From NCBI GenBank assembly GCA_028865345.1, contig JAGWKL010000005.1, forward strand, positions 21,577 to 85,576: 64,000 nucleotides of DNA. The letters are read 5' to 3'. Positions 3,868 to 54,904 of this stretch are shown in pieces. Origin of the DNA: Candidatus Omnitrophota bacterium (GTDB lineage Bacteria; Omnitrophota; Gorgyraeia; Zapsychrales; Fredricksoniimonadaceae). The position numbers were made by a program, and so were the translations under genes. A model generated the notes under the pieces. That model saw nothing but the letters and a program-made list of their open reading frames with translations. It had not been told where the DNA came from and ran no database searches. The first letter of the stretch is position 1, and the number at the start of each line of letters is the position of its first letter.

Positions 3868-4548
3868 ATGCGTATCCTTGTCATCGAAGATGAAGTCAAA
3901 ATCGCCCAGTTCATCAAGCGCGGCCTTAAAGAGGAGGGCTACGCCGTTGATGTGGCCAATGACGGCGAAGAAGGCCATTTCATGCTGGCTTCCAATGAAT
4001 ATGATGCCCTTGTTCTCGACTTGATGTTGCCCAAGATGGACGGCCTGGCGCTGTGCCGCCAGCTGCGCAAAGACGGCAATCAGATCCCTATCATCATGCT
4101 GACCGCCAAGGACACGGTCAAGGACAAGGTCAAGGGCCTGGACACCGGCGCGGACGATTATCTCCCTAAGCCTTTTGCCTTTGAGGAGCTGTTGGCGCGT
4201 GTGCGCGTATTGTTACGCAAAAAGGACAGCCGCGTGCAGACGCAGTTGAGGGTGGACGATCTTTGCCTGGATTTGTTGACCCACAAGGTGACAAGGTCCG
4301 ACCGCGATATCGATCTTACGTCCAAAGAATTCGCCTTGCTGGAATATTTGATGCGCAATGCCGGCAACATCGTCACCCGCACCATGATATCCGAGCACGT
4401 ATGGGATATTAATTTCGATACCTTCACCAATGTCATCGACGTCTATATCAATTATCTGCGTAATAAGATCGACAGCGGTTTTGAGAACAAAATGATCCAT
4501 ACCGTGCGGGGCAAAGGATACCTTCTCAAGAAGGGTGCAACACCTTAA
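3868..4548 (+). CDS. OmpR-family two-component response regulator (CusR/CopR-like).
   Basis: Receiver domain (DEVKIAQFI...DLMLPKMDG...LTAKD) followed by a winged-helix output domain. Confidence 0.9.
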   Translation: MRILVIEDEVKIAQFIKRGLKEEGYAVDVANDGEEGHFMLASNEYDALVLDLMLPKMDGLALCRQLRKDGNQIPIIMLTAKDTVKDKVKGLDTGADDYLPKPFAFEELLARVRVLLRKKDSRVQTQLRVDDLCLDLLTHKVTRSDRDIDLTSKEFALLEYLMRNAGNIVTRTMISEHVWDINFDTFTNVIDVYINYLRNKIDSGFENKMIHTVRGKGYLLKKGATP

Positions 4549-4553
4549 AGAAC

Positions 4554-6038
4554 ATGCCTTTCCATTCCATCCGCTTCAAGATCGTCCTGTGGCACATGCT
4601 GATCCTGTCCCTGGCCCTGTTCATTTTCGGGACGGTGCTCTATCACAATTTTTACCTGAAGGCCTCCGATGATACCGATGACATTTTGCGTTCCCGCGCC
4701 AAAGGTTTTGAACAGTCCATCAATACCTATTGGGAAGCCGAGAGCATGGCCATTGCCCAGGGAAACAGGAGGGTTCATTTTACCAAAGAAGATAATATCA
4801 ATTTTATAAGGCTGGCCAGGCGCTGGGTGGAGGAGAAGATCAATGACCCGGATTTAATCAATATAGTCGTGCGCATTTTCGATGCCCACGGAAATCCCAT
4901 TGCCTCTTCCAGGAATATCCCCATCGCGCACCTGAATGAGAGCATTTTTCACAACGTTAAGAAAGGCGCAGACCATTTTGAGAATGTTTTTCTGATGGAA
5001 GATGAGAAACCGTCCTCTTTCAGGACCCTCACCACTCCTGTCATGGAAGGCCGAAGGCTGGCCTACATCGTGCAGGTGGCCAGCCCCTTGTCCCAAATCC
5101 ATACCGTGCTTCGGAGTTTGCGCCTTTCTTTGCTTGTGTTGTTGCCCCTGACGGTCATCCTGACAGGATTGAGCGGCGTTTTTCTCGTCCAGCTGACGCT
5201 CAAGCCCGTTGACCAGATGATCGAGACCATCCACCAGATCAGGGCCGAAAATTTAAAGCTGCGGCTCAAGATCCCGGGCACCCGCGATGAAATAGAGTCC
5301 CTGGCCAGGACCTTTAACGAAATGATCGCCCGCCTGGATGAGGCCTTCACCACCCAGCGGCAATTCATGGAAGACATTTCCCATGAGCTTAAAACGCCTT
5401 TGGCGGTGCTTAAGGGAGAGCTGGAAGTCACGCTGAAAAAGATCCGGTCGACCCAGGAATACGAGACCGCCATGCACAGCATTCTCGAGGAGGTCGACCG
5501 CCTGGCGGGGATCGTGGGCAACCTTTTGACCCTGGCGAGGTTTGACGCGAAAACCACGGAGCTTGACGCGCAGCCGCTCGACCTCAACGCTTTGATCAAA
5601 GACGCGATAGAGGTCATGCAGGTGCTGGCCATCCAGAAAGACATAACGCTTCAATTCAACAGCGCCCATACGGTCGATATCACCGCCGACAAAAACCATC
5701 TCAGGCGGCTTATCTTGAATCTCCTGGACAATGCCATTAAATACACGCCGCCGGGAGGCAAGGTCTCCGTCGATCTCCGCCAACAGAAAGAAACGGTGGA
5801 CCTGGACATCGCGGACACCGGCGTTGGGATCCTTCCCAAAGACCTGCCCCATATTTTTGACCGTTTTTACAGGATCGACAAATCCCGCAGAAGCGCCGGC
5901 TTCGGGCTGGGCTTGAGCATCGCCCAGTCCATTGCCCTGGCGCATGGAGGGAAAATCGAGGCCAGGGCCAATGATCCCCAGGGAACGGTTTTTACCGTTT
6001 CTTTGCCGTTAAAGCCAAAACAGGTTATAGAATTTTAA
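4554..6038 (+). CDS. Sensor histidine kinase (two TM segments, periplasmic domain, HAMP, HisKA, HATPase).
   Basis: H-box EDISHELKTPL plus the N-box and G-box (NLLDNAIKYT, GLGLSIAQ). It sits 6 nt downstream of the regulator. Confidence 0.9.
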   Translation: MPFHSIRFKIVLWHMLILSLALFIFGTVLYHNFYLKASDDTDDILRSRAKGFEQSINTYWEAESMAIAQGNRRVHFTKEDNINFIRLARRWVEEKINDPDLINIVVRIFDAHGNPIASSRNIPIAHLNESIFHNVKKGADHFENVFLMEDEKPSSFRTLTTPVMEGRRLAYIVQVASPLSQIHTVLRSLRLSLLVLLPLTVILTGLSGVFLVQLTLKPVDQMIETIHQIRAENLKLRLKIPGTRDEIESLARTFNEMIARLDEAFTTQRQFMEDISHELKTPLAVLKGELEVTLKKIRSTQEYETAMHSILEEVDRLAGIVGNLLTLARFDAKTTELDAQPLDLNALIKDAIEVMQVLAIQKDITLQFNSAHTVDITADKNHLRRLILNLLDNAIKYTPPGGKVSVDLRQQKETVDLDIADTGVGILPKDLPHIFDRFYRIDKSRRSAGFGLGLSIAQSIALAHGGKIEARANDPQGTVFTVSLPLKPKQVIEF

Positions 6039-8613: not shown

Positions 8614-10290
8614 ATGTCTGATATCAGAAAGTTCTCCCGTTTGGTTGTCGACGGCAATGACCGCGCACCCAACCGGTCCATGCTGCGCGCCACCGGGTTC
8701 AAGGATGAGGATTTTGGCAAAGCCCAAATCGGCGTGGTTTCCACCTGGAGCATGCTCACCCCCTGCAACATGCACATTGATAAATTGGCCGCCAAGGCGG
8801 TGGAGGGGGTTGACGCCGCCGGCGGCAAGGGCATCATTTTCGGCACCATCACCGTGGCCGACGGCATTTCCATGGGCACCGAGGGCATGAAGTATTCCCT
8901 GGTTTCCCGCGAGGTGATCGCGGATTCCGTGGAAACGGTCGCCGGATGCGAAGGCTTCGACGGGCTGGTGGCCGTGGGCGGCTGCGACAAGAACATGCCC
9001 GGTTGTGTGATCGCCATGGCCCGCCTGAACCGTCCGTCGGTGTTTGTTTATGGCGGCACCATTTTGCCCGGCTGCCTGCATGGACAGAACCTGGACATCG
9101 TTTCCGTATTTGAAGCGGTTGGCAAACATGCCGCCCGGAAAATTTCCGACCAGGAATTAAAAGATATCGAAAGCTGCGCCATACCGGGTCCCGGTTCATG
9201 CGGGGGGATGTACACGGCCAATACCATGGCCAGCGCCATCGAGGCTCTGGGCATGAGTCTTCCCAACAGCTCCATGCAAATTGCCGTGTCCCGGGAGAAA
9301 CAATTGGATTGTTTTAATGCCGGCGCCGCCGTCCTGGATTTATTGAAACGGAATCTCAGGCCCCGCGACATCATGACCAAAAAAGCTTTTGAAAATGCCA
9401 TTTGCGTGGTCACCGCCTTGGGCGGATCGACGAATGCCGTTTTGCATCTCATGGCCATTGCCCATGCGGCAGGCGTCAAATTAAACCTCGATGATTTCAC
9501 CCGCGTGAGCAAAAAAGTTCCGGTGTTGGCCGACCTTAAGCCCAGCGGCCGTTTTGTAACGGCGGAATTGGCGGCCATCGGCGGGCTTTTGCCGTTGATG
9601 AAAATGCTTTTGGACAAAGGCCTGTTGCACGGCGAGTGCATGACCGTGACAGGAAAAACCATGCGTGCCAATTTAGCTGATGTCAAACCATACCCCGCGG
9701 GCCAAGAGATCATCAGGCCGTTGGATAACCCCATTAAGAAGGAAGGCCATCTGGTCATTTTATATGGTAATCTTGCTCCTGAGGGTTCGGTAGCCAAGAT
9801 CACCGGCAAGGAAGGGTTGTCTTTCAGCGGGCGGGCCAAGGTTTTTGATTCGGAAGAAAAGGCGCTCAAAGCCATATTAGGCGGCAAAATTGTCAAGGGG
9901 GATGTGGTAGTGGTCCGCTATGAAGGCCCCCGCGGCGGTCCCGGCATGCGCGAGATGCTTTCTCCCACATCGGCCATTGCGGGCCGGGGACTCGGCAAGG
10001 ATGTCGCCTTGATCACCGACGGGCGGTTTTCCGGAGGTTCACACGGTTTTGTGGTAGGGCACATCACGCCCGAGGCTTTTAACGGCGGGCTTTTGGGTAT
10101 CGTCAAAAACGGCGATACCATCACCATTGACGCCGTCAAAAGGCAGATCGATCTTCTCCTCCCTGCGGCGGAAATCAAGAAGCGCCAAAAAGCCTGGGAA
10201 GCGCCAAAACCAAAATATACCCGCGGTGTCTTGGCCAAGTACGCTAAATTGGTCACCAGCGCCTCCAGTGGTGCAGTGACGGACAAATAA
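8614..10290 (+). CDS. ilvD: Dihydroxy-acid dehydratase.
   Basis: Matches the IlvD/Edd family throughout (CDKNMPG, SGGSHG). The ATG at 8614 comes straight after the leuD stop. Confidence 0.93.
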
Positions 10291-10293
10291 CTT

Positions 10294-10407
10294 ATGGCAG
10301 GCAATTCTTTCGGACAGTTTTTTAAGATCACCACCTTCGGCGAAAGCCACGGGCCCGCGATTGGGGGCGTCAAAAGGCCCAATTGCTTCGACGTCGAAAG
10401 AGGTTAA
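10294..10407 (+). other. Upstream ORF (37 aa) that duplicates the first 24 codons of aroC and ends in a conserved linker.
   Basis: Translation is [37 protein letters not shown]. The ATG lies 3 nt after the ilvD stop. The TAA overlaps the aroC RBS 2 nt before the aroC ATG. Confidence 0.5.
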
Positions 10408-10409
10408 TT

Positions 10410-11477
10410 ATGGCTGGTAATTCTTTTGGTCAGCTTTTTAAAATTACTACTTTTGGTGAAAGTCACGGACCTGCGATTGGGGTCGTCATTGACGGGGTGC
10501 CGCCCAAACTGCCATTGACCGAAGCAGACATTCAAAAAGATTTGGATCGCCGCCGTCCCGGCCAAAGCAAAATCACCACCCAGCGCCGGGAACCTGATAA
10601 GGCCGAGATCCTTTCCGGTGTCTTTGAAGGCAAAACAACAGGCGCGCCGCTGGCCATCCTCATCCGCAATACGGACGCCCGTTCCAAAGATTATGAGAAT
10701 ATCAAAGACGTGTTCCGTCCGGGCCATGCGGATTTCAGCTATATGGCTAAATACGGGATCCGAGACCACCGTGGCGGCGGGAGATCGTCAGGCCGGGAAA
10801 CCGCCTGTCGGGTCGCCGCCGGTGCGGTGGCCAAAAAGATTTTGGCCGGGCATAAGGTCGGGATCATTGTTTATACATTGTCCGTCGCGGGCGCCTATGC
10901 CCAGGAGATTGATTACAGTGTCATCGAAAAAAACGCGGTGCGTACCGCCGATATGAAAGCCGCCGGGCTCATGATCGCCAAGATTGAAGAGGCGCGCAAG
11001 AACGGCGATTCGCTGGGCAGCACCCTGCAGTGCGTTGTGAAAAATTGCCCTGCGGGCCTGGGCGATCCCTGCTTTGATAAACTCAATGCGCGCCTGGCCC
11101 AGGCATTGATGTCCATAGCGACCGTCAAGGGTATTGAATTCGGCGATGGGTTCGCCGCCAGCCAGCTGACGGGTTCCATCAACAACGACCGGTTTGTCCT
11201 TAAGGGTAAGAAAGTGGGGACCGCCACCAACCATTCCGGCGGCATCATGGGCGGCATATCCACCGGCGAAGACATCACCATCCGTATGGCATTGAAGCCG
11301 CCGTCATCCATTTCCAGGCTGCAGAAGACAATCAACGAGAAACAACAGGAAGTCGAAGTCCGGGTCAAAGGCCGCCATGATCCGTGCCTCGCCCCGAGAG
11401 TTGTCCCTGTGGCTGAAGCCATGATCGCCCTGACGCTGGTGGATTGTTTGATGATCCAGAAAGCCACAAATTTATAA
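10410..11477 (+). CDS. aroC: Chorismate synthase.
   Basis: N-terminus [29 protein letters not shown] and full-length AroC similarity. The SD GAAAGAGG is present. The ORF track's start at 10383 is an upstream TTG artefact. Confidence 0.93.
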   Translation: MAGNSFGQLFKITTFGESHGPAIGVVIDGVPPKLPLTEADIQKDLDRRRPGQSKITTQRREPDKAEILSGVFEGKTTGAPLAILIRNTDARSKDYENIKDVFRPGHADFSYMAKYGIRDHRGGGRSSGRETACRVAAGAVAKKILAGHKVGIIVYTLSVAGAYAQEIDYSVIEKNAVRTADMKAAGLMIAKIEEARKNGDSLGSTLQCVVKNCPAGLGDPCFDKLNARLAQALMSIATVKGIEFGDGFAASQLTGSINNDRFVLKGKKVGTATNHSGGIMGGISTGEDITIRMALKPPSSISRLQKTINEKQQEVEVRVKGRHDPCLAPRVVPVAEAMIALTLVDCLMIQKATNL

Positions 11478-11487
11478 ATCCATTGTC

Positions 11488-11553
11488 ATGCAGGATCAAA
11501 AAGTCATTTTAAATATTCCCTGTTCCTTCGACGGCGCCGGGGTACATGGATAA
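11488..11553 (+). other. Upstream ORF copy 1 (21 aa) of the SDR start-duplication module.
   Basis: Translation is MQDQKVILNIPCSFDGAGVHG*. Its TAA overlaps the next ATG (ATGGATAA). Confidence 0.4.
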
Positions 11554-11611
11554 TCGAAAAGTTATTCTCAATATTCCCTGTTCCTTCGAGGTCGGAAGGT
11601 TAAATGGATAA
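11546..11611 (+). other. Upstream ORF copy 2 (21 aa) of the SDR start-duplication module.
   Basis: Translation is MDNRKVILNIPCSFEVGRLNG*. It duplicates ATGGATAATCG(A/G)AAAGTT of the SDR gene. Its TAA overlaps SDR codons 2-3. Confidence 0.45.
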
Positions 11612-12452
11612 TCGGAAAGTTGTCCTGATTACGGGGTGTTCAAGCGGGTTTGGGCTGTCTACGGCTGTACGATTGGCTGCGAGCGGCCATTTTGTTTGGG
11701 CGACGATGAGGGACACGTCCAAAAGGTTCCGCCTGGAAAATGGGCTGGCCAAGCACAGGGCCCAGGCTTTTATCCGCGCGCTGGATGTCACGCAACCTCT
11801 TACCATCCAAAATGTCGTTGATGAAATCGACCAAACCCATGGGCGTATTGATGTGCTGGTCAATAACGCGGGCTATTTGGTCGCGGGGTTCTTTGAGGAT
11901 TTGAAGCCCGAGGAGATCCGCGCGCAGATGGAAACCAATTTTTTCGGGGCACAGAATGTCTGCCGCGGGGTTCTGCCTTTGATGCGCCGGCAAAAGAAGG
12001 GCAGGATCATCAATATTTCCAGTATTGCCGGGCAAATAGGCACTCCGACGCTGGGAGCGTACAATGCCAGCAAGTGGGCGCTGGAGGGATTCAGCGAAAG
12101 CCTTTATTTTGAACTTAAGCCCTTCGGGATTTCCGTTTCCCTGCTGGAACCCGGCCTTTATACAACCGAACTTTTCAGCAAGAATATCCGTTACGCACAG
12201 GATTTTGACAATCCCCAAAGCCCGTATTTCAGCCTGAACCGGAAAATTAAGGCGTTTTCCCATAAGTTCCATAAACTTGGGAAGGACCCCAACCGGATAG
12301 CCGGGCTGATTGAACGGATCATCAATGAGAGGTCCCCGCGTTTGCGCTATGTTTCCGATTTTCCATCGTGGGTAAGGATCAATGCCCAAAAGATCCTGCC
12401 GCCGGCCTGGGTGGCCTATATTCTCAGGAGGGTTTTTCATGCAGACAAATAA
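11604..12452 (+). CDS. Short-chain dehydrogenase/reductase (SDR family oxidoreductase).
   Basis: TGCSSGFG Rossmann motif, NNAG, and the catalytic S...YxxxK (YNASK). Confidence 0.85.
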   Translation: MDNRKVVLITGCSSGFGLSTAVRLAASGHFVWATMRDTSKRFRLENGLAKHRAQAFIRALDVTQPLTIQNVVDEIDQTHGRIDVLVNNAGYLVAGFFEDLKPEEIRAQMETNFFGAQNVCRGVLPLMRRQKKGRIINISSIAGQIGTPTLGAYNASKWALEGFSESLYFELKPFGISVSLLEPGLYTTELFSKNIRYAQDFDNPQSPYFSLNRKIKAFSHKFHKLGKDPNRIAGLIERIINERSPRLRYVSDFPSWVRINAQKILPPAWVAYILRRVFHADK

Positions 12453-19059: not shown

Positions 19060-22000
19060 TTGACCATGCTTAGAAAAATTTTGAGCCTGACCGTTATTTT
19101 CTGTTTTTTTCTCACAACTTTAACCCCCTATCCCAAAGCCCACGCAGATATAATGGCCGCCCTGCCGGCGCCCGGGACCATGGTCAATTTAAGCCCGGCT
19201 TACCAGCCTGTATTGATCAAGGGTTTGACCGTTCATAAAGACAATCCGTTCCTTTTTGATTTCATGGTGGATACCGGCAACAGCGGCATGACCGGCGCCC
19301 GGCTGAAGAAAGAAAGCGACCGCCTGGTCAAATACTTTTTCGCCTGCTTGACCATCCCCGAAAAAGATCTGTGGGTCAACCTTTCCCCATATGAAAAGAA
19401 CCGCATGATCCCCAGAGCCCTTGGTCAGACCGCGTTGGGACGCGATCTGTTGGCCGAAGATTATATCCTTAAACAGTTGACTGCTTCCCTAATATATCCC
19501 GAAAAAGACCTTGGCAGGACCTTCTGGAACAGGGTTTATGCAAAAGCCCGGCAGATGTACGGCACCACCCAGATCCCGGTGAATACCTTCAATAAGGTAT
19601 GGATCGTTGCTGATAAAGCTACTGTATATGAGCATGGCCAGACGGCGTTCGTGGTCAGGGGACACCTGAAGGTGATGCTTGAAAAAGATTATTTGGCCTT
19701 GAAGAAACATATGGCGGGTGCTGTTGAAGGCCGGGCGGGGTCTTCCCGGACCAATGACCTTGGCTCCCAGATTGTGCGCGAGATCGTCCTGCCCGAGATC
19801 GATAAAGAAGTGAACACGGGCAGGAATTTCGTTGCCCTGCGTCAGATATTTAATTCTCTTATCCTGGCCGCGTGGTACAAGAAGGAGCTCAAGCAGGCCT
19901 TGTTGAACCGGGTTTATGCCGATAAGAGCACCGTCAAAGGCATGAACCTGGCCGACCCTTCCGTCAAGGAAATGATCTATCAACGCTATCTGGAAGCGTA
20001 CAAGAAGGGTGTGTTCAATTATGTCAAGGAGTATACCCGGGCCGACGGCCAGGTGGTCCCCAGAAAATATTTTTCCGGCGGGTTTGTTTCAGATTTGAAA
20101 ATGACCGTAGACAAAGACCCTGCGGATGCGGCCCAGGCCGCCGAGCCGACGGGGAATATGGTGGACGTGTCCGTCGGGCTGAAGGTCAAAACCGGCGACC
20201 AGGCCATGACGCCCCAGACCAATGATTTCGATAATGCGTATGTCCTCTGGGACGAGCAGACCTCCCAGTTGGATGAACATACGGGCAAGGGCCTGGTCGG
20301 TGGAAAATCTTATCAGGCGGCCAGGTATTGGAAAGACGAACCGGCCAATAATCTGCGCAGTTTTTCCGCCACCGCCAAGGCTTCCATCGATTTTTTGAAT
20401 TCCAACCAGGATCTGCTTCCCGAGATATACCGTATCACCCGCGACCTTGATGCTTCCGATGAAACGGCCAGGGAAGAGGCCGGCGCCAGGATCCGAGCCT
20501 TGATCACGGGTACGCCCGTTCCTGCTGCCATTGAACAGGCCGTCCGCCAGGGCTACCGCAGATTGGTCAGCATCACGGACCAGCCGTTGGTGGCGGTGCG
20601 CAGCTCCGGGAAGGCGGAGGATATTTCCCTGAATGTCCCGGAACTGGCCGGGATCAATATGGGCGCCAATGCCGGGCAGCATGACACCTTCCTTGGGGAA
20701 ATGGGCGCAGATGCGGTCATTAAACGCTGGAGGGACTGTATCGCTTCGCTGTATACGGCCCGGGTCCTTGGCTACCGCGACAGCATGATGGTCTTCAGCG
20801 CCTTCGGCAAGATTCTGCCCAACAAACAATTGACCGCGGAGATCATTGCCAAGCTAAAGACAGGCAACGATGAGGACAGGCTTGTGGCCCGCGCCATTGA
20901 GGAAAAGAACATAGGGATCATCTCTTCTTTAAGATTATTGCATGCCTTGCAGCGCAACGGTTTTCAGGAAGCGGCGAAGCTGGTCAGTGAAGCGCGCGAG
21001 GATTTCATCAAGATCGCAAACATAGCCATGGGGGTCACGATCATGCCCATGGCCGGCGTTGACATTTCCTTCGTGGCCTTCGGGCATGACATGACCTCCT
21101 ACTGGACGGCGAAGGATTTCCAGGACGTTTCTCCCGAGGAATATCTTAATAAAGGCCGGGTGGTGACTGTCACCACCAATTACGGCCTGGGGGAATCTAT
21201 CGTGCAGGGGGCTGCCATGCCCGATACGTTTCTGGTGCACATTTTTAAAGATTCAAGCGGGGAACATGTCAATATCCTTTCCCGGACCCTGGGCACGAAA
21301 AGCGTGCAGACCGTATATGTCGCCCCTGTCATGGAGGCTCTCGGTCTCAACCATGCTTCGGTGAAACTGTTCCTGGAATTATTGGGGGCCGGGGATGTCA
21401 CGGCCTTCAGCGGCTTGGGCAACGCAAAGGATTATAACGAGATGCATCTTAAGAAGGGGGCCGATCTGGTCGTCATCAAAGACGTCCTGGAACGGTTGAT
21501 CAAAGAAAAGGTCGATGGGACATCCTCTGTGAAGATCACGGCCGATGAGCTGTCCCAATTCACGTATACCAGGGAAGAATTGGATAAACTGGCGCACCTT
21601 TTAAAGGCGTTCCAGAAGGACCCGGAGATCAAGACCATGTTCACGGACGTCCCGGAGGAGTTGCGCAACCAGTTTTCGGCCAGCGATGAGCAGGTCCGCA
21701 AGATCGCCCTGGAGTTCATGAAAAAGGCCAAAGATTTTCACGATCTCGTGGATATGGAAGGCGCCGTGGGCAAGAATTTCAGCCGGCTCAACGTCGCGGT
21801 GACGACCCAGCGCCGCCCCTCCAATGTGGACAAAGGCGACGTCAAGGAACCACGGATGATCAATATCCATTACACCTATGTGAAGGCCGGCGACGTCGAT
21901 AAGATCCGTGCCGGGAAGGAACGCATCACCAAGGCCGACGGACAGTTGACGAACATTGTGGTCGGTGAACAACTGGTCCAGGGCATCCCCACCCGCAACA

Positions 22001-25000
22001 GTTTTTCGGGGACGATTTACAAGATCGATGACTCCAAGGACCTGACGCCCCAATTTGAGGAGATCAAACGTCTGGCCGATGAAGGCCATAAGATCATTAT
22101 CCGTACCAATGAGACGACTCCGGACTATATCGATGTGTTGAAATATAAAAATGTGGTGGGGGTCATCGCCAATTCAGGCGGGGCGACCTCGCACGCGGCG
22201 GTCGTTTCCAGGGAGCTTGGTATCGCCACGGTGGTGGGCATTCAGAGCTGGCTGGACAGGCTGGCCGATACCCTGGGCCCGCAGAAGGCTATGGAGATCA
22301 AGGAATATCTCGATACGACCGGGAGCATTGTGACCGTGGACGCCAATGCCGGCGAAGAAACGGGTTTGGGTACCGTTTATGCAGGCCAGTTGCCCATCAG
22401 TACGCGCAACATCGAGATAGACATATCACGCCTTCCTTATATTTACACCAAGATCGGCTATATCATGGGCATGCCCCATCCGATGCTGGCCATGTCTAAA
22501 ATGTCTCAATATAAGGGATATTACGGGGTGGCGCTGATGCGCGGGGAGTTCGCTTACGCGGAGGAAGGCATCAATCCGCGGGCGGGGCGCGCCTATGATC
22601 TGATGCTGGTGGATGATTATTTGAAGACGTACAGGGACAACAATGCAGCCAAAGCTTATTATGAAAAATTGGGGCGGGCGGAAAGAGAAGCCCTCGACAC
22701 CTTCAGGACCCTTCTTGAACGAAGGGCGGATCTGCGCGCCCGGGGGCAGGACATTCCTTTGGATGAAACACAACGGTACATCGAGCAGTTCAAGAATAAG
22801 CGTCCGGGGGCTTTTTTAAAGAGCCTCTCCACCTACCAGCAGACGGACATTGAGCTGCTGAGGGAGCACAGCGAAGATGTGGGGAAATTGACCAAACAGA
22901 TCGTCGGGTATTTGTCGTACAATGAGTTTTTTGAAGCGGTGCACGGCGGGGCGGTGGCGACCATGGCCGCAGCCAACAGCCAGGAAAACGATACCGTCGT
23001 TTATCGCAGCATCGACTTCAAGAAAAACGAAGCGGCCGAACTGATCGGCTCCAAGATCTTTGACCCTATCCCCGAGCCCGCCACCATGATCGGTGAGCGC
23101 GGCGCCCGCTGGCTTTTAAAGCCGGAGAACAGGGTCATCCTTGTCGAAGAGATCCACATGCTCCTGCGGCAGGTCGACCGGGGTTATAAAAATATCGGTT
23201 TCATGTTCCCCTTTGTGTCTACTCCCCACGAGTTGGACCAGCTTTTGACCATATTGGATAATGAAGAAAGGAGTTTCAGTCTCCAGGAGAACAAACCTTT
23301 ATATTTAAGGGAAGTCGGACAAATGGTGGAACTGCCCAGCAACATCGTGGAGGCAGAACAGTTCATCCAGGTTCTCAAGAGGCACGAAGCCAGGACCAAA
23401 GCGTGGTTCAAGGAGAAGTTTTCCGTGGACATCAAGCGCAGCAGCTTTCTGTCCTTCGGGACCAATGACCTGACTCAGTTGACCCTCGGTGCGGACAGGG
23501 ACAATCCCAAAATGAGGCAATTGTTCAATGAGGCCAACCCCTTTGTCATCGAATCCATCCGCCACGTGGTCAATATGGCCAATAAATACGGGATCAAATG
23601 CGGGCTTTGCGGCCAGGCGCTGGTGAACCTGGTCAATGTGGACCCTGATGCGGCGGAGGAGATCCTCATGCTCCTCGGTTCCACGGGAGGGTATGCCGGG
23701 ACGGACTATCTGGGCACCCTGGCGGCCATCACCCGTTCCGCGAGCGCGACCCTGAAACACGGGGTGGTGGCGGATGAAGTGGCTGCCTCGGCGCAACCGA
23801 TCGCCCTGCACATTGAGTCCACCTTGGAGCACGGGGCGGCCGCCCGTCCTTTGTATCAGGTGACAACCCACGAGGATCTGGACAAAACCTATTTGGGTGA
23901 TTTTATCTTCGTCCATAACGGTATTTTGTCGGGTTTTGAAAAGGACGAGAAGTTAAAGCAGCAGCTTTCCCGTTTGGGGGCCATTATCTACAGCGATGAT
24001 AAACTGGCCGACGTGATCAAGACCGTCAGCAAGACCTTACGCGTGCCGGCCGTTAAGGTGGATGCAGGCGCCGACCGCCTCGCCGCTGTATCTAACGGAG
24101 ATAAAGTCACCATTGATTTCAACCGCCATGCCATTTACAGAGGCGCCCTGGAGGTTTCCATCGATGTGCCTGAAATAGCCAGCAAGATCGACGTCAACGC
24201 CAAACACCATCCGGAATTAAAGCGCATCGACTTTAACGAGACCTTCCGCGCTTCGGACTTGTACAAAAGCCTGGGCATCTATCCGACGGCTTTCCTGGCC
24301 TTTGATGACCCGAAAAAGCAAGGTGAGCTCGACCCTGAGACCATCGCCGAGATCAGGCATTTGATGCGCGAAACGCAGAGTTCTTCGGCCGTAGGAGTCC
24401 TGCGCCATGAGATCCAAAAGAGGATCACCTCTCAAATGGTCCAGCCTGATGCCAGAATGGTTTATGAGACCATGGACCTGCAGAGTGATGATCAGATCAA
24501 GCTGCTGGGCCATAAAGCCATGGGCGCCGTGGAAGAGGTCAACCCGCCCTTAGGGTTCAACGGCCTGGAAGCTTTGATGGACGACCCTCAATTGAGGGAA
24601 CTCTTCAAGGTCGAGATGTCCACCGTCAAGGGGCTGATCGACAAGGGGTATAATATTTCTATTCAATTCAACGGCATCAAGACCCCCAAGAGCCTGCAGG
24701 AGGCCATGGCGATCCTAAAGGAGATCGGCATTGATCCCTCCAAGGTCAAGGTGGGCATGAATACAGCCTGGCCCGGCAATTATCTTTTCCTGCAGGAATA
24801 CCTGGCCCAGGGGCTTTCCTTTGTGACCGTGGATGAAAGGAAGTTGGCCCAAGCGTATCTGGCGGCCGATCTTTATAAGAACGAAAGGGTCCGCGATACT
24901 TATGCATGGAACAATATCAAGGCGGACATGAATTATCCCGAAAGGATGATCGAACAGGCCGTTGCTGATTATTCCGCCAGAAAGCACGATGTCTTCATCC

Positions 25001-25317
25001 GGACCATCCCCTTTGATTCTGCCATGACAGCGCCCCCTGAAATGCCTGTTGCCGCCGTGAGGACGCAAGCGGCCGTCCCGCCGGGCGGTATCGACTTAAA
25101 TACCGCCAACATGGCCATGACGGTGACCAAAGACGCCGACGGCGGAGTAAAGGTGCTTACGCAGTCGAAACAATTGGGCCTTTTGATCGCGCGCATCAAG
25201 ACCAGGGGGGTATTCTCGGCGGACCCTGTCATTATCCGTATCACGCCCATAAGCCGCGCGCAGATATCGCCTTTGTTGGGCTTGCGGGTGTCACCGGCCC
25301 GGTCGGCCCAGGTTTAA
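19060..25317 (+). CDS. Giant (2085 aa) signal-peptide or anchor protein with PEP-utilising-enzyme domains (PPDK/PEPS-like).
   Basis: N-terminal hydrophobic signal. Nucleotide-binding motif VAVRSSGKAEDISLNVPELAG. Phospho-His swivel GGATSHAAVVSRELGIATVVG. TIM-barrel motif FLSFGTNDLTQLTLGADRDN. About 450 aa N-terminal and about 550 aa C-terminal have no clear assignment. Confidence 0.75.
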   Translation: MTMLRKILSLTVIFCFFLTTLTPYPKAHADIMAALPAPGTMVNLSPAYQPVLIKGLTVHKDNPFLFDFMVDTGNSGMTGARLKKESDRLVKYFFACLTIPEKDLWVNLSPYEKNRMIPRALGQTALGRDLLAEDYILKQLTASLIYPEKDLGRTFWNRVYAKARQMYGTTQIPVNTFNKVWIVADKATVYEHGQTAFVVRGHLKVMLEKDYLALKKHMAGAVEGRAGSSRTNDLGSQIVREIVLPEIDKEVNTGRNFVALRQIFNSLILAAWYKKELKQALLNRVYADKSTVKGMNLADPSVKEMIYQRYLEAYKKGVFNYVKEYTRADGQVVPRKYFSGGFVSDLKMTVDKDPADAAQAAEPTGNMVDVSVGLKVKTGDQAMTPQTNDFDNAYVLWDEQTSQLDEHTGKGLVGGKSYQAARYWKDEPANNLRSFSATAKASIDFLNSNQDLLPEIYRITRDLDASDETAREEAGARIRALITGTPVPAAIEQAVRQGYRRLVSITDQPLVAVRSSGKAEDISLNVPELAGINMGANAGQHDTFLGEMGADAVIKRWRDCIASLYTARVLGYRDSMMVFSAFGKILPNKQLTAEIIAKLKTGNDEDRLVARAIEEKNIGIISSLRLLHALQRNGFQEAAKLVSEAREDFIKIANIAMGVTIMPMAGVDISFVAFGHDMTSYWTAKDFQDVSPEEYLNKGRVVTVTTNYGLGESIVQGAAMPDTFLVHIFKDSSGEHVNILSRTLGTKSVQTVYVAPVMEALGLNHASVKLFLELLGAGDVTAFSGLGNAKDYNEMHLKKGADLVVIKDVLERLIKEKVDGTSSVKITADELSQFTYTREELDKLAHLLKAFQKDPEIKTMFTDVPEELRNQFSASDEQVRKIALEFMKKAKDFHDLVDMEGAVGKNFSRLNVAVTTQRRPSNVDKGDVKEPRMINIHYTYVKAGDVDKIRAGKERITKADGQLTNIVVGEQLVQGIPTRNSFSGTIYKIDDSKDLTPQFEEIKRLADEGHKIIIRTNETTPDYIDVLKYKNVVGVIANSGGATSHAAVVSRELGIATVVGIQSWLDRLADTLGPQKAMEIKEYLDTTGSIVTVDANAGEETGLGTVYAGQLPISTRNIEIDISRLPYIYTKIGYIMGMPHPMLAMSKMSQYKGYYGVALMRGEFAYAEEGINPRAGRAYDLMLVDDYLKTYRDNNAAKAYYEKLGRAEREALDTFRTLLERRADLRARGQDIPLDETQRYIEQFKNKRPGAFLKSLSTYQQTDIELLREHSEDVGKLTKQIVGYLSYNEFFEAVHGGAVATMAAANSQENDTVVYRSIDFKKNEAAELIGSKIFDPIPEPATMIGERGARWLLKPENRVILVEEIHMLLRQVDRGYKNIGFMFPFVSTPHELDQLLTILDNEERSFSLQENKPLYLREVGQMVELPSNIVEAEQFIQVLKRHEARTKAWFKEKFSVDIKRSSFLSFGTNDLTQLTLGADRDNPKMRQLFNEANPFVIESIRHVVNMANKYGIKCGLCGQALVNLVNVDPDAAEEILMLLGSTGGYAGTDYLGTLAAITRSASATLKHGVVADEVAASAQPIALHIESTLEHGAAARPLYQVTTHEDLDKTYLGDFIFVHNGILSGFEKDEKLKQQLSRLGAIIYSDDKLADVIKTVSKTLRVPAVKVDAGADRLAAVSNGDKVTIDFNRHAIYRGALEVSIDVPEIASKIDVNAKHHPELKRIDFNETFRASDLYKSLGIYPTAFLAFDDPKKQGELDPETIAEIRHLMRETQSSSAVGVLRHEIQKRITSQMVQPDARMVYETMDLQSDDQIKLLGHKAMGAVEEVNPPLGFNGLEALMDDPQLRELFKVEMSTVKGLIDKGYNISIQFNGIKTPKSLQEAMAILKEIGIDPSKVKVGMNTAWPGNYLFLQEYLAQGLSFVTVDERKLAQAYLAADLYKNERVRDTYAWNNIKADMNYPERMIEQAVADYSARKHDVFIRTIPFDSAMTAPPEMPVAAVRTQAAVPPGGIDLNTANMAMTVTKDADGGVKVLTQSKQLGLLIARIKTRGVFSADPVIIRITPISRAQISPLLGLRVSPARSAQV

Positions 25318-36104: not shown

Positions 36105-36154
36105 ATCAATACGTTGCTTATATTCCCTGTTTCTTCGGCGCCGTTAGGTTTTAT

Positions 36155-52560: not shown

Positions 52561-52609
52561 TTTATTATAAACGGATTCATCAAAAGGCTTGTTTGCCGAC
52601 GAGGACCAT

Positions 52610-53659
52610 ATGTACGAAAAAGAGCTGGAATATCCGGTTAAGACCGTTCGTGCCGGTGTTTGGGGTGTCAGCGGATATACCGGCCGCGAAGTTTTTTCGC
52701 TGCTTTTGAAACACCGGGGCGTGAGGGTGACCTATGTGGCCGCCAACAACACCCAAGGGCCTTTGCCTGAAATTTTTCAGGAATTCCTGAACCGTACGAC
52801 CCTGGTTTGCCGCCCATTCAGCGTCAAGAAAACCGCGAAAAGGTGTGACGTGGTTTTCTTGGCCTTGCCGCACACTCAGTCCATGGCGGTGGTGCCGAAG
52901 TTATTAAAAGCGGGCTTAAAGGTCATTGACTTAAGCGCAGACTACAGGCTTAAAAGCCCCGAGGTTTATGAACAGTGGTATGGGCACAAACATGACGATA
53001 TAAGGAATCTAAGCAAGGCCGTTTACGGTCTGCCGGAGTTGTTTCGTCAGAAAATAAAAGGGGCCGTCTTTGTGGCCAATCCGGGCTGCTACCCTACGGC
53101 GGCCGTTTTGGGGCTGGCGCCGTTGATCGCCACTGCCAAGGACATTTTGTCCATCGTCGTGGACGCCAAATCAGGGGTTTCCGGCGCCGGACGTAAGGCC
53201 GCGGTGGAAAAGCTTTTCGGCGAGGTCAGTGAAAACTTCAAGGCGTATAAAGTGTTGAGCCATCAGCACGCGCCGGAAATCGAGCAATATTGTTCTCAAT
53301 TGGCCGGCAGGGAAACACCCATTCATTTTGTGGCGCACCTGCTTCCCATCACGCGGGGCATTTTAAATACGATGTATGTGCATTTAAAAGAGGGCATTGC
53401 TTTAAATCAACTGTACAATCTTTATAAGAAATTTTATAAGATCGAGCCTTTTGTGCGCGTCCATCCGTTGGGAAGCCAGCCGGAGGTCAAGAGTGTGGCC
53501 AATACCAATTTCTGCGATATCGGTTTGGCGGTAAGCCCAGACAAGAAGATGGTGGTCATTACGTCGGCCATTGATAATTTGGTCAAAGGCGCCGCCGGAC
53601 AGGCGGTACAAAACATGAATTTGATGCTGGGATTTAATGAAACTGAAGGATTGTTATGA
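52610..53659 (+). CDS. argC: N-acetyl-gamma-glutamyl-phosphate reductase.
   Basis: ArgC family with the active-site Cys (PGCYPT). The ATG at 52610 follows SD GAGGA. The ORF track's 52589 start is an upstream TTG. Confidence 0.9.
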   Translation: MYEKELEYPVKTVRAGVWGVSGYTGREVFSLLLKHRGVRVTYVAANNTQGPLPEIFQEFLNRTTLVCRPFSVKKTAKRCDVVFLALPHTQSMAVVPKLLKAGLKVIDLSADYRLKSPEVYEQWYGHKHDDIRNLSKAVYGLPELFRQKIKGAVFVANPGCYPTAAVLGLAPLIATAKDILSIVVDAKSGVSGAGRKAAVEKLFGEVSENFKAYKVLSHQHAPEIEQYCSQLAGRETPIHFVAHLLPITRGILNTMYVHLKEGIALNQLYNLYKKFYKIEPFVRVHPLGSQPEVKSVANTNFCDIGLAVSPDKKMVVITSAIDNLVKGAAGQAVQNMNLMLGFNETEGLL

Positions 53660-53775
53660 AGATGACTCGAGGCGGGGTAACGGCAGCTAAAGGGTTTTTG
53701 GCCAACGGGGTATCGGCAGGCAATATTCCCTATTGCTTCGAATTCGTAAGGGGTTCTGCATATGAAAATTATTAA
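53656..53775 (+). other. Upstream ORF (39 aa) that duplicates the argJ N-terminus and ends in the conserved linker.
   Basis: Translation is MKMTRGGVTAAKGFLANGVSAGNIPYCFEFVRGSAYENY*. Its ATG overlaps the argC TGA (ATGA). Its stop falls inside argJ codons 4-5. Confidence 0.5.
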
Positions 53776-54904
53776 GGGCGGAGTTTGTACTCCTAAAGGT
53801 TTCTTGGCCAATGGTGTGTCATCAGGTATCAAACGGTCAGGGAAGCTGGATTTAGGCGTCATTGTTTCCGAAGTGCCCGCTGTTGTGGCCGGGGTGTTTA
53901 CCAAAAGTTCCATCAAGGCAGCGCCTCTCATCGTCAGCATGAAGCATATCAAAAAAGGCTCTGGAAGGGCGGTGGTGGCCAATTCCGGCAACGCCAATTG
54001 TTTTACCGGTCCCGCCGGGTTAAGGTATGCGCAGGGAACGGCGGAAGCGGTGGCCGGGTTTCTTGGCGTCGGACCCGCGGATGTTTTGGTGACATCCACA
54101 GGGATCATTGGTAAGACCCTGCCTTACAATAAGATCATCGACGCGCTGCCGGCTTTGCTCAAGGGTGTCGGCTCCAAAGGCGGCGGTAATTTCGCCAGGG
54201 CCATCATGACGACGGATTTGAAGGTCAAGGAATGCGCTGTTTCGCTTGTGATCGGAGGCAAAAAAGTCTCCGTCGGCGGCTGCGCCAAAGGTTCCGGGAT
54301 GATCGAACCCAATATGGCCACCATGCTCGGGTTTATCACTACGGACGCATCGATCTCTTTAAAGATGTTGAAGCTGGCTTTAAAGCGCGCCACGGAGCGT
54401 TCGTTCAACAGCATTACCGTCGATGGGTGCATGAGCACCAATGATATGGTCACCGTGCAGGCCAATGGGCTGGCCGCCAACACAAAAATCACGGCACAAG
54501 GGGCTGATTTCAAGAAGTTTTACGGGGCGCTCGAATTTGTCTGCGTCGATTTGGCCAAGCAGATCGTACTCGACGGGGAAGGCGCCACCAAATTTATAGC
54601 GGTCCATGTCAAGGGCGCGGCGGATGGTCCCCAAGCCCGTACAATAGCCAAAACCATCGCCAATTCACCCTTAGTCAAGACTGCGGCTTTCGGCAGCAAC
54701 CCTAATTGGGGGCGGGTGGCTGCGGCCGTGGGTTCCTTGGGGATCGCCCGGATCAACGAGAACAGCGTGAAGATCACTTTTTCCCCCTTTGACAAAAAGG
54801 AAATCAGCATTGGCGTCGAACTTTCGTTGGGACGTGCCGAAGCCACGGTTTACACCTGCGATCTTTCGCTCGAGTATGTGCGGATCAACGGGGAGTACAA
54901 TTGA
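53762..54904 (+). CDS. argJ: Bifunctional glutamate N-acetyltransferase / amino-acid acetyltransferase.
   Basis: ArgJ family (GFLANGVSSGIK...ATMLGFITTDA, with the self-cleavage Thr). Confidence 0.92.
   Translation: MKIIKGGVCTPKGFLANGVSSGIKRSGKLDLGVIVSEVPAVVAGVFTKSSIKAAPLIVSMKHIKKGSGRAVVANSGNANCFTGPAGLRYAQGTAEAVAGFLGVGPADVLVTSTGIIGKTLPYNKIIDALPALLKGVGSKGGGNFARAIMTTDLKVKECAVSLVIGGKKVSVGGCAKGSGMIEPNMATMLGFITTDASISLKMLKLALKRATERSFNSITVDGCMSTNDMVTVQANGLAANTKITAQGADFKKFYGALEFVCVDLAKQIVLDGEGATKFIAVHVKGAADGPQARTIAKTIANSPLVKTAAFGSNPNWGRVAAAVGSLGIARINENSVKITFSPFDKKEISIGVELSLGRAEATVYTCDLSLEYVRINGEYN

Follow-up and report, generated by a model that had tools for sequence, protein, structure and literature searches.

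At the boundary between argC and argJ, the stretch of Candidatus Omnitrophota DNA analyzed here (64,000 nt in full, hereafter the window) carries a 39-codon upstream reading frame (uORF) that runs from the stop of the first gene into the start of the second and repeats the first codons of argJ on its way. How such a frame came to lie between two arginine biosynthesis genes, and whether it has a role there, is the question addressed below. The features of the junction are as follows.

52589..53659, + strand, argC (N-acetyl-gamma-glutamyl-phosphate reductase), from the ORF list, with Pfam Semialdhyde_dh and Semialdhyde_dhC_1
53656..53775, + strand, 39-codon uORF, made of 22 ancestral argJ codons and 17 codons from the linker (L) and the first 14 nt of regenerated argJ
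53656..53721, + strand, upstream truncated copy of argJ codons 1-22, at the ancestral junction (alignment to the empty junctions of loci L083 and L084)
53722..53761, + strand, L copy at argJ, conserved core 53722-53753 (repeat family)
53762..53827, + strand, downstream functional copy of argJ codons 1-22, rich in codons ending in T or A
53762..54904, + strand, argJ, 380 aa, with Pfam ArgJ

Every statement that the sequence-only reading had made about the uORF, its overlap with the argC stop and its TAA in argJ codons 4-5 checks out. The frame encodes MKMTRGGVTAAKGFLANGVSAGNIPYCFEFVRGSAYENY followed by a stop, and its ATG sits on the argC TGA (TTATGA; an ATGA overlap): the argC 3' end reads ...GGATTGTTATGA, and the ATG therein (53656) opens the uORF. 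The TAA (53773-53775) straddles argJ codons 4 and 5, taking one base from the former and two from the latter, so that the uORF stops 11-13 nt 3' of the argJ ATG at 53762, from which the protein begins MKIIKGGVCTPKGFLANGVSSG... The claimed duplication of 22 argJ codons is likewise real, with the two 66-nt copies (53656-53721 and 53762-53827) identical at 44/66 nt and 15/22 aa and their codon differences divided into 10 synonymous and 7 non-synonymous. The uORF retains the ancestral start context, i.e., the ATGA overlap and a native GAAGGA 5 nt upstream, and the regenerated argJ ATG is preceded by an L-derived AAGGGG (53748-53753) with an 8-nt spacer (TTCTGCAT) between. Pfam confirmed ArgJ, the ArgC-type semialdehyde dehydrogenase, chorismate synthase and adh_short, and the window ArgJ and AroC proteins are each 100% identical to NCBI proteins from Candidatus Omnitrophota MAGs. 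The listed start of argC is a TTG, and the true start of that gene may be further downstream.

Orthologous junctions of the same length in close relatives had been named by the sequence-only reading as the observation that would speak against it; instead, five related lineages are 106 nt shorter at this point. In L083, L084, L086, L087 and L088, whose ArgJ proteins are 78-81% identical to the window ArgJ, argC and argJ meet at a plain 4-nt ATGA overlap with no L and no uORF, and the window has gained 40 nt of L and a 66-nt target copy. The ilvD/aroC and aroC/SDR junctions, which hold the same architecture in the window, are likewise only 1-2 nt apart and free of L in L093, L094 and L095-L097 (AroC 88-93% identical at the amino acid level). 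Because the junctions of the relatives are tight and empty, the window structure was read as an insertion of L with a 66-nt target duplication. Simple tandem duplication was ruled out, since the first copy has no L on its 5' side and the relatives have the ATGA overlap. We therefore regard the interval as the likely scar of an L insertion accompanied by a 66-nt target duplication, with the uORF a by-product and L an element of MITE/REP-like character.

If the interval is such a scar, its history can be laid out in steps. Before the insertion, argC and argJ would have overlapped by ATGA, as they do in the relatives. L (~32-40 nt), presumably a selfish MITE/REP-type element that colonizes tight gene junctions, would then have entered at the boundary of argJ codons 22/23, and a 66-nt target copy would have arisen alongside, with its 5' boundary on the argJ start codon or a few bases ahead of it. 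The old start, still placed on the argC stop and behind its native GAAGGA, would now open the uORF, whose frame would pass through the 22 old codons, then through L as AAT-ATT-CCC (N-I-P...), and end at a stop inside the new argJ. The regenerated ATG would be served by the SD-like AAGGGG from the 3' end of L, and ArgJ may be made via this L-borne SD directly and/or by reinitiation of ribosomes leaving the argC-coupled uORF. Judged from the sequence, the uORF probably keeps translational coupling from argC to argJ across the insert.

The sequence-only reading had described the linker between the two argJ copies as conserved and common to aroC and an SDR gene; the commonality holds, but L is not a purpose-built bridge and is instead one copy of a dispersed, mobile-looking repeat that is seen at numerous unrelated junctions and on either strand. 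Its core is AATATTCCCTRTTNCTTCG-N4-CG-NAAGG, in which AAGG is usual, not invariable. The 5' end, (A)ATATTCCC, is precise and the 3' end ragged; the element is 27-62 nt long, and most solo copies measure 27-40 nt and have one conserved end. The exact 32-mer found at argJ is unique in the window within 3 mismatches, and the first 30 nt of this copy are identical to a copy in L001 (an Omnitrophota MAG). A 31-nt core occurs in four window copies at 77-81% identity (11513-11543, 11571-11601, 36120-36150 and 53723-53753), and a fifth, more diverged copy is found at aroC (10373-10407). Altogether, the window has five clear L copies, all on the + strand, plus one variant on the - strand. The solo copy, which is orthologous to a copy in L058, and the variant are located at:

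36119..36151, + strand, solo L between ispH/lytB and moaE, antisense to both, with a 13-14 nt flanking direct repeat
25150..25184, - strand, variant L (AAAAGGCCCAATTGTTTCGACTGCGTAAGC) in the 3' end of the ORF at 19060-25317, read in frame on the + strand

Scanning of one genome per species identified two Candidatus Omnitrophota MAGs with L, and its remaining 13 hits are probably fortuitous. In metagenomes, 67 loci with the L motif were detected, some of them chance matches in coding DNA. Five settings were distinguished among these copies. In the first, a solo L is wedged between adjacent genes, with the upstream stop 0-7 nt before L and the start of a long ORF 4-16 nt after its AAGG. In the second, a copied gene start accompanies L, the examples being the SDR orthologue in L055 and L060, together with L040 and L026/L039. 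In the third, L forms an arm of ~90-nt inverted-repeat elements nested within ~250-nt palindromes; these long forms occur in relatives and have the arms ATATTCCCTRTTNCTT...AAGNAAYAGGGAATAT, and at argJ, aroC and SDR L stands alone, only one of its ends being conserved. In the fourth, L lies in 38-nt tandem arrays, and in the fifth it is read in frame within the ArgJ of another lineage, L085 (MKV-NIPCSFDFVSL-VGGG). At ~15 junction copies, the AAGG of L lies 4-14 nt ahead of the start of a long ORF. A phage origin was ruled out, as no viral contig carries L, and so was membership in a known RNA family: neither the window nor 8 L-rich loci had an Rfam match at gathering score, and 53500-53900 had none at E values up to 10. 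No description of the L family was found in a limited search of open-access literature text.

The direct repeats immediately adjoining L were compiled across the catalog of loci. They measure 7 nt (L067), 10 nt (L032, L037 and L061), 11 nt (L038), 13 nt (L058 and the orthologous window copy at 36120), 14 nt (L026 and L051), 21 nt (L060, at the aroC 3' end, with L reversed), 24-27 nt (SDR), 54 nt (L040), 66 nt (argJ), 81 nt (aroC) and ~100 nt (L055, aroC 3' end). In every long case the intact gene adjoins the 3' (AAGG) side of L, at or within a few bases of the start or stop codon of that gene, and the truncated copy adjoins the 5' side. Campbell-type integration of a small circle was also considered, and by inspection the complementary mosaics that it predicts were not seen in the two copies.

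Among known elements, L fits best with the MITE/REP-type junction repeats of bacteria, such as Correia/NEMIS, ERIC, RUP and BOX (reviewed in PMC10969869), yet departs from them in the length of its duplications and in its ends. Like these repeats, it is tens to hundreds of nt long, non-coding and multicopy (5-6 copies in 64 kb, with others in further genomes and loci), has a conserved terminus and long inverted-repeat-armed forms, is flanked by direct repeats, prefers intergenic junctions and can lend expression signals to its neighbors. Unlike MITEs, it is mostly a solo element of 27-40 nt with one conserved and one ragged end, and its duplications range from 7 to ~100 nt where those of MITEs are fixed at a few bases. 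No partner transposase was identified, and at the 5' ends of genes the duplication accompanying L restores the start, with an in-phase uORF left behind. L junctions also lack the stable hairpin of REP/REPIN elements, with fold z-scores of -0.9 to +0.9. The empty sites, the dispersed family, the adjoining duplications, the long forms and the position at junctions nonetheless support the reading of the argJ interval as an insertion scar. It counts against this reading that duplications of 7-100 nt are atypical of ordinary DDE transposition, that no transposase or other gene mobilizing L was found in the loci searched, and that solo L has a single conserved end. Across ~690 kb of loci, no ORF was seen between two L copies in inverted orientation.

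Long target duplications of variable length have been described for other elements. IS1549 and IS1634 (IS1634 family) are flanked by insertion repeats of 8-514 bp, for which no model was proposed, and are autonomous insertion sequences of 1.5-2 kb with a DDE transposase, from Mycobacterium and Mycoplasma (PMC2266710). L resembles them in that one element generates target duplications of very different lengths, although the link is one of analogy only, and no such transposase gene or matching ends were seen for L. For restriction-modification units, "insertion with long target duplication" has been described, in which no additional mobility gene takes part and variable repeats of >30 bp (e.g., 46 bp) often overlap the end of a neighboring gene (PMC2853133). 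Those are unique events involving kilobase-scale gene units, whereas L is a 35-nt sequence inserted repeatedly. With L, the phenomenon of long target duplications of variable length would gain a third example, and a very small one. Rickettsia palindromic elements (RPEs) of ~100-150 bp have been reported as in-frame insertions in protein-coding genes (PMC10969869). L is similarly tolerated in frame, in the L085 ArgJ and in the window ORF at 19060-25317, but RPEs have no association with gene-start duplication or uORFs.

The sequence-only reading had also stated that the linker and the architecture recur at aroC and SDR, and this is borne out by the uORFs at 10294-10407, 11488-11553 and 11546-11611:

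10294..10407, + strand, aroC uORF of 37 aa, made of 26 duplicated aroC codons and a diverged L (10373-10407)
11488..11611, + strand, two tandem units of 8 codons plus L before the SDR gene (ATG at 11604), with uORFs 11488-11553 and 11546-11611

The TAA of the aroC uORF ends 2 nt 5' of the aroC ATG (10410), and the aroC copies are identical at 63/78 nt over 26 codons (duplication of 81 nt at 81% identity). At argJ, aroC and SDR alike, the uORF has its own initiation signals and ends near the main start. One SDR unit is present in L055 and one in L060, and none in L093 or L095-L097. The SDR uORF head, MDNQKVIL, is common to three lineages, which differ in it at six third codon positions and one second position, and the L core at SDR is identical at 22/22 positions in the window, L055 and L060, where the flanking genes are only ~70% identical. 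The SDR architecture is thus common to the window, L055 and L060, yet absent from relatives that are closer by AroC, a patchy distribution that implies loss, independent gain or horizontal spread. Overall, the observation holds, recurs at several genes and goes beyond what was seen at first: a repeat dispersed in Omnitrophota has inserted here in a lineage-specific manner. It suggests that a very small selfish element can invade the 5' coding end of essential biosynthetic genes (argJ and aroC) without destroying them, because the copied target restores the start and L contributes a ribosome-binding site.

The recurrence also bears on two other explanations. As the window belongs to a metagenome-assembled genome, an assembly or binning artefact could in principle have fused the argJ starts of two different strains here. 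However, the aroC and SDR junctions recur, with two single-base differences, in four additional assemblies of this species, three of them MAGs and one from Logan. With these junctions in agreement across four independent assemblies, the same architecture in unrelated metagenomes and a conserved L between the copies every time, we consider the chance of an artefact negligible. A short ORF directly 5' of an arginine biosynthesis gene also brings to mind an amino-acid-sensing leader peptide or attenuator of the arginine operon. This we consider very improbable, given that the peptide has two scattered Arg codons and no run, that the relatives have no uORF, that an identical architecture precedes aroC and the SDR gene, and that the frame is located inside the operon, between two arg genes. 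Furthermore, there is no significant fold, and no promoter-like or terminator-like site was found in 53300-54000 on the + strand, which also ruled out a promoter or terminator in L.

Wherever L follows a start codon it is read in the AAT-ATT-CCC phase, in 9/9 independent events (argJ, aroC, SDR, L040, L026, L067, L001, L038 and L085; p ~5e-5). In eight of the nine, the end of the uORF falls in a range from 27 nt ahead of the main ATG to 13 nt past it, and in L085 the frame continues into ArgJ. An insertion at the DNA level is blind to reading phase, and the rule therefore needs selection or another mechanism. In L014 the uORF start has decayed to ATA, indicating that the uORF is not always needed. 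Together with the relaxed constraint on the upstream copy described below and the conserved L core, the 9/9 phase further supports an L insertion with target duplication. For an uncultured phylum, the junctions amount to an experiment that nature has repeated several times on how genes are coupled in translation and how uORFs form.

The phase rule raises the possibility that L and the uORF together form a selected translational module, in which L acts as a cis element that is read in the N-I-P frame, passes ribosomes from gene to gene and is bound by a protein, RNA or the ribosome, i.e., a natural bicistronic design. In termination-reinitiation coupling and bicistronic designs, a leader cistron has its own RBS, a second SD lies within the leader, and the leader stops at or near the main start. 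By its sequence, the argJ leader would differ from such designs in being a chance product of target duplication and a mobile repeat. The module overlaps with the insertion scenario, and as an explanation in its own right we hold it to be tenable though rather unlikely. Besides the 9/9 phase and the stop near the main ATG in the eight uORF cases, it draws on an L core that is invariant at all codon positions across lineages, on the SDR head MDNQKVIL kept in three lineages, on the placement of L at SD distance from starts, and on the recoding of the aroC and argJ downstream copies to T/A-ending codons, with the lowest N-terminal GC3 of 51 genes. It is opposed by the relatives, which have no L at all three junctions, by the relaxed constraint on the argJ uORF peptide, by the loss of the uORF start in L014, and by the copies of L that are antisense, inside ORFs or in arrays, where such a role is impossible. 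Nor was a stable fold found, and a folding test for an open start was mixed. An SD-sequestering hairpin (CTTCG-N4-CG-N-AAG) appeared plausible by eye, but structures folded with ViennaRNA were no better than those of shuffled sequences and differed between copies. Across seven junction RNAs (six with L and one empty control), fold z-scores between -0.9 and +0.9 and inconsistent structures were obtained; folds no more stable than shuffles give no support to L as a structural switch.

Divergence between the copies was examined with regard to their age and origin. The sequence-only reading had judged the argJ duplication to be old because the copies differ at both synonymous and non-synonymous sites. 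The differences are as described, but great age is questionable: the upstream copy matches its orthologues no worse than an average argJ block does (44-51/66 nt, with a mean argJ block of ~49, and 51/66 nt for L083 and L086), no relative examined has the insertion, and much of the divergence consists of T/A-ending synonymous codons in the downstream copy. Against its orthologues, the upstream copy has a synonymous to non-synonymous ratio of ~1:1, and its residues M3, R5 and A11, at conserved positions, are absent or rare among 89 homologues. In the aroC upstream copy, a polymorphism within the species changes F to S. On these comparisons, the argJ uORF peptide shows apparently relaxed constraint.

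Outside argJ, the differences between copies number 11, 2 and 52 by codon position (51 synonymous and 8 non-synonymous codons), and the truncated copies diverge like coding DNA. This includes a 99-nt fragment of the aroC 3' end in L055 without an in-frame start codon, which differs from the functional copy at 25 positions, none of them a second position. The distances of these two sequences from the window orthologue are similar (23 and 26 differences). Duplication followed by neutral decay of the truncated copy was rejected outside argJ (p < 5e-4).

The downstream copies are also unusual in composition. GC3 and T3 are 0.32 and 0.45 in the argJ downstream copy, compared to 0.67 and 0.20 in the remaining argJ, and the N-terminal GC3 (codons 2-26) of aroC and argJ (0.16 and 0.32) is the lowest of 51 window genes (mean 0.57, sd 0.13), with T-ending codons in the aroC and argJ downstream copies reaching 45-62%. 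Compared to L093, the upstream aroC copy is identical at 67/78 and the downstream copy at 61/78 positions. Branch arithmetic places ~4.5 changes on the upstream and ~10.5 on the downstream copy, the latter all synonymous. A synonymous change biased toward the downstream copy means that the functional start was either recoded rapidly and directionally, or imported.

In the case of import, the two copies would be alleles of different lineages: DNA of an L-bearing relative would have recombined in and left the gene end of the recipient truncated, with one end joined by homology and the other illegitimately at the 5' terminus of L. The coding-like divergence between copies (11, 2 and 52 by codon position), the equidistant L055 fragment, the downstream copies as compositional outliers and the always precise junction at the 5' end of L are all compatible with this, and the first SDR fragment of the window (MQD...) resembles L093 (MQN...), with the functional start reading MDN... 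However, MDN... is also found in the empty relative L096, and no donor-like, T-rich aroC start was seen in five other lineages. The atypical composition does not extend past the boundary of the duplication, beyond which identity to L093 is not depressed; a foreign tract confined to the duplication would be <80 nt, too short an anchor. A mosaic test of the SDR gene was weak, its best breakpoint having p = 0.004 before correction for ~200 positions, and a recombinant SDR gene was set aside on this signal. We consider allele import improbable. In-situ recoding of the functional start is favored over import, on the basis that the five other lineages offer no T-rich donor and that the atypical tract lies within the duplication boundary.

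As for the cause of the recoding, DGR-like adenine mutagenesis and ssDNA deamination were ruled out because only synonymous sites have changed, a confinement that requires selection. One candidate pressure, toward an open initiation region, was examined by folding, with mixed results. At aroC, an open start is supported (-34.8 vs -40.5 kcal/mol, with 4% of codon mosaics equally weak); at argJ, no effect on MFE was observed (-31.8 vs -30.4 kcal/mol), with start accessibility slightly increased (0.51 vs 0.43). An unlikely account would unite these observations by treating L as a novel type of bacterial mobile element, a ~35-nt, one-ended "junction cassette" that enters tight junctions with long, variable duplications anchored at ORF boundaries. 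It would be retained in one phase only because the uORF serves as a portable adaptor for translational coupling, and the synonymous recoding of the regenerated gene start would be an adaptive response of the host.

L junctions also have a practical consequence for genome annotation, as they yield wrong start calls and spurious N-terminal extensions, examples being the TTG at 10383 in the window and the ArgJ of L085.

At both aroC and argJ, a downstream duplicate of the first codons of the gene lies 3' of the dispersed repeat L, providing a regenerated start:
10410-10487, window: regenerated start of aroC
53762-53827, window: regenerated start of argJ
Third-position GC in these two segments was the lowest among the 51 genes of the window, and T-ending codons made up 45-62% of their codons. 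The shift in composition ended at or before the duplication boundary and was seen in no orthologue of either gene. The mechanically called aroC ORF (10383-11477) begins at a TTG within L; the gene's actual start codon is an ATG at position 10410. Start-codon calls will be misled by junction repeats of the L type. L was also read in frame in another lineage:
L085, 42-1217: ArgJ (protein P0080) containing L
Here, the 33-nt L is placed in frame after codon 3, which accounts for the 11-residue insert NIPCSFDFVSL in the gene call, and a long duplication around L is absent.

Duplication was also observed at the 3' end of aroC, around reversed L copies in two other loci:
L055, about 4140-4370, reverse strand: duplication of about 100 nt
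L060, about 1050-1150: duplication of 21 nt
The downstream aroC fragment of L055 has no in-frame start codon and differs from the functional copy by 6 first-, 0 second- and 19 third-position changes.

Elsewhere, L occurs in larger arrangements:
L032 (11-120), L037/L061 and L016 (937-1007): head-to-tail arrays of L
L023, L034, L041, L053, L054, L063, L073 and L080: nested palindromic elements, each some 250 nt long
The arrays have a period of 37-38 nt, each unit consisting of ~28 nt of L and a roughly 10-nt duplicated target; as they lack spacers, a CRISPR-like identity was ruled out. In the nested elements, which had no match in Rfam, an outer inverted repeat (GGATGAACAGCTATTATG...) surrounds an inner one whose left arm is L.

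Repeats other than L were found at gene junctions as well:
L086 (a relative with an empty argC/argJ junction), 11144-11205, 12064-12143, 8774-8963 and 1771-1805: junction repeat GTCATCCTGAGCGAAGCGAAGGATCTC
L055, about 5340-5370, reverse strand: hairpin repeat GGATTCCCGCTTTCGCGGGAATGAC, upstream of aroC
The GTCATCCTGAGCGAAGCGAAGGATCTC repeat lies directly upstream of argB, argD, argC and leuB in L086; the corresponding junctions of the window are overlapping or tight. A related motif, GTGTCATTGCGAGGAGCG...CGACGAAGCAATC, follows the L arrays in L024, L032, L037, L052 and L062. Gene junctions in the Omnitrophota phylum seem to be colonised by several repeat families. Where L055 has the hairpin, ilvD immediately precedes the aroC junction in the window.

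The sixth L copy of the window is a variant:
25150-25184, minus strand: AAAAGGCCCAATTGTTTCGACTGCGTAAGC
It falls within the final 60 codons of a PEP-utilising/PPDK-like ORF (19060-25317, 2085 aa) and reads in frame on the plus strand as LTQSKQLGLLI; the true C-terminus of this protein may have been altered by L insertion.
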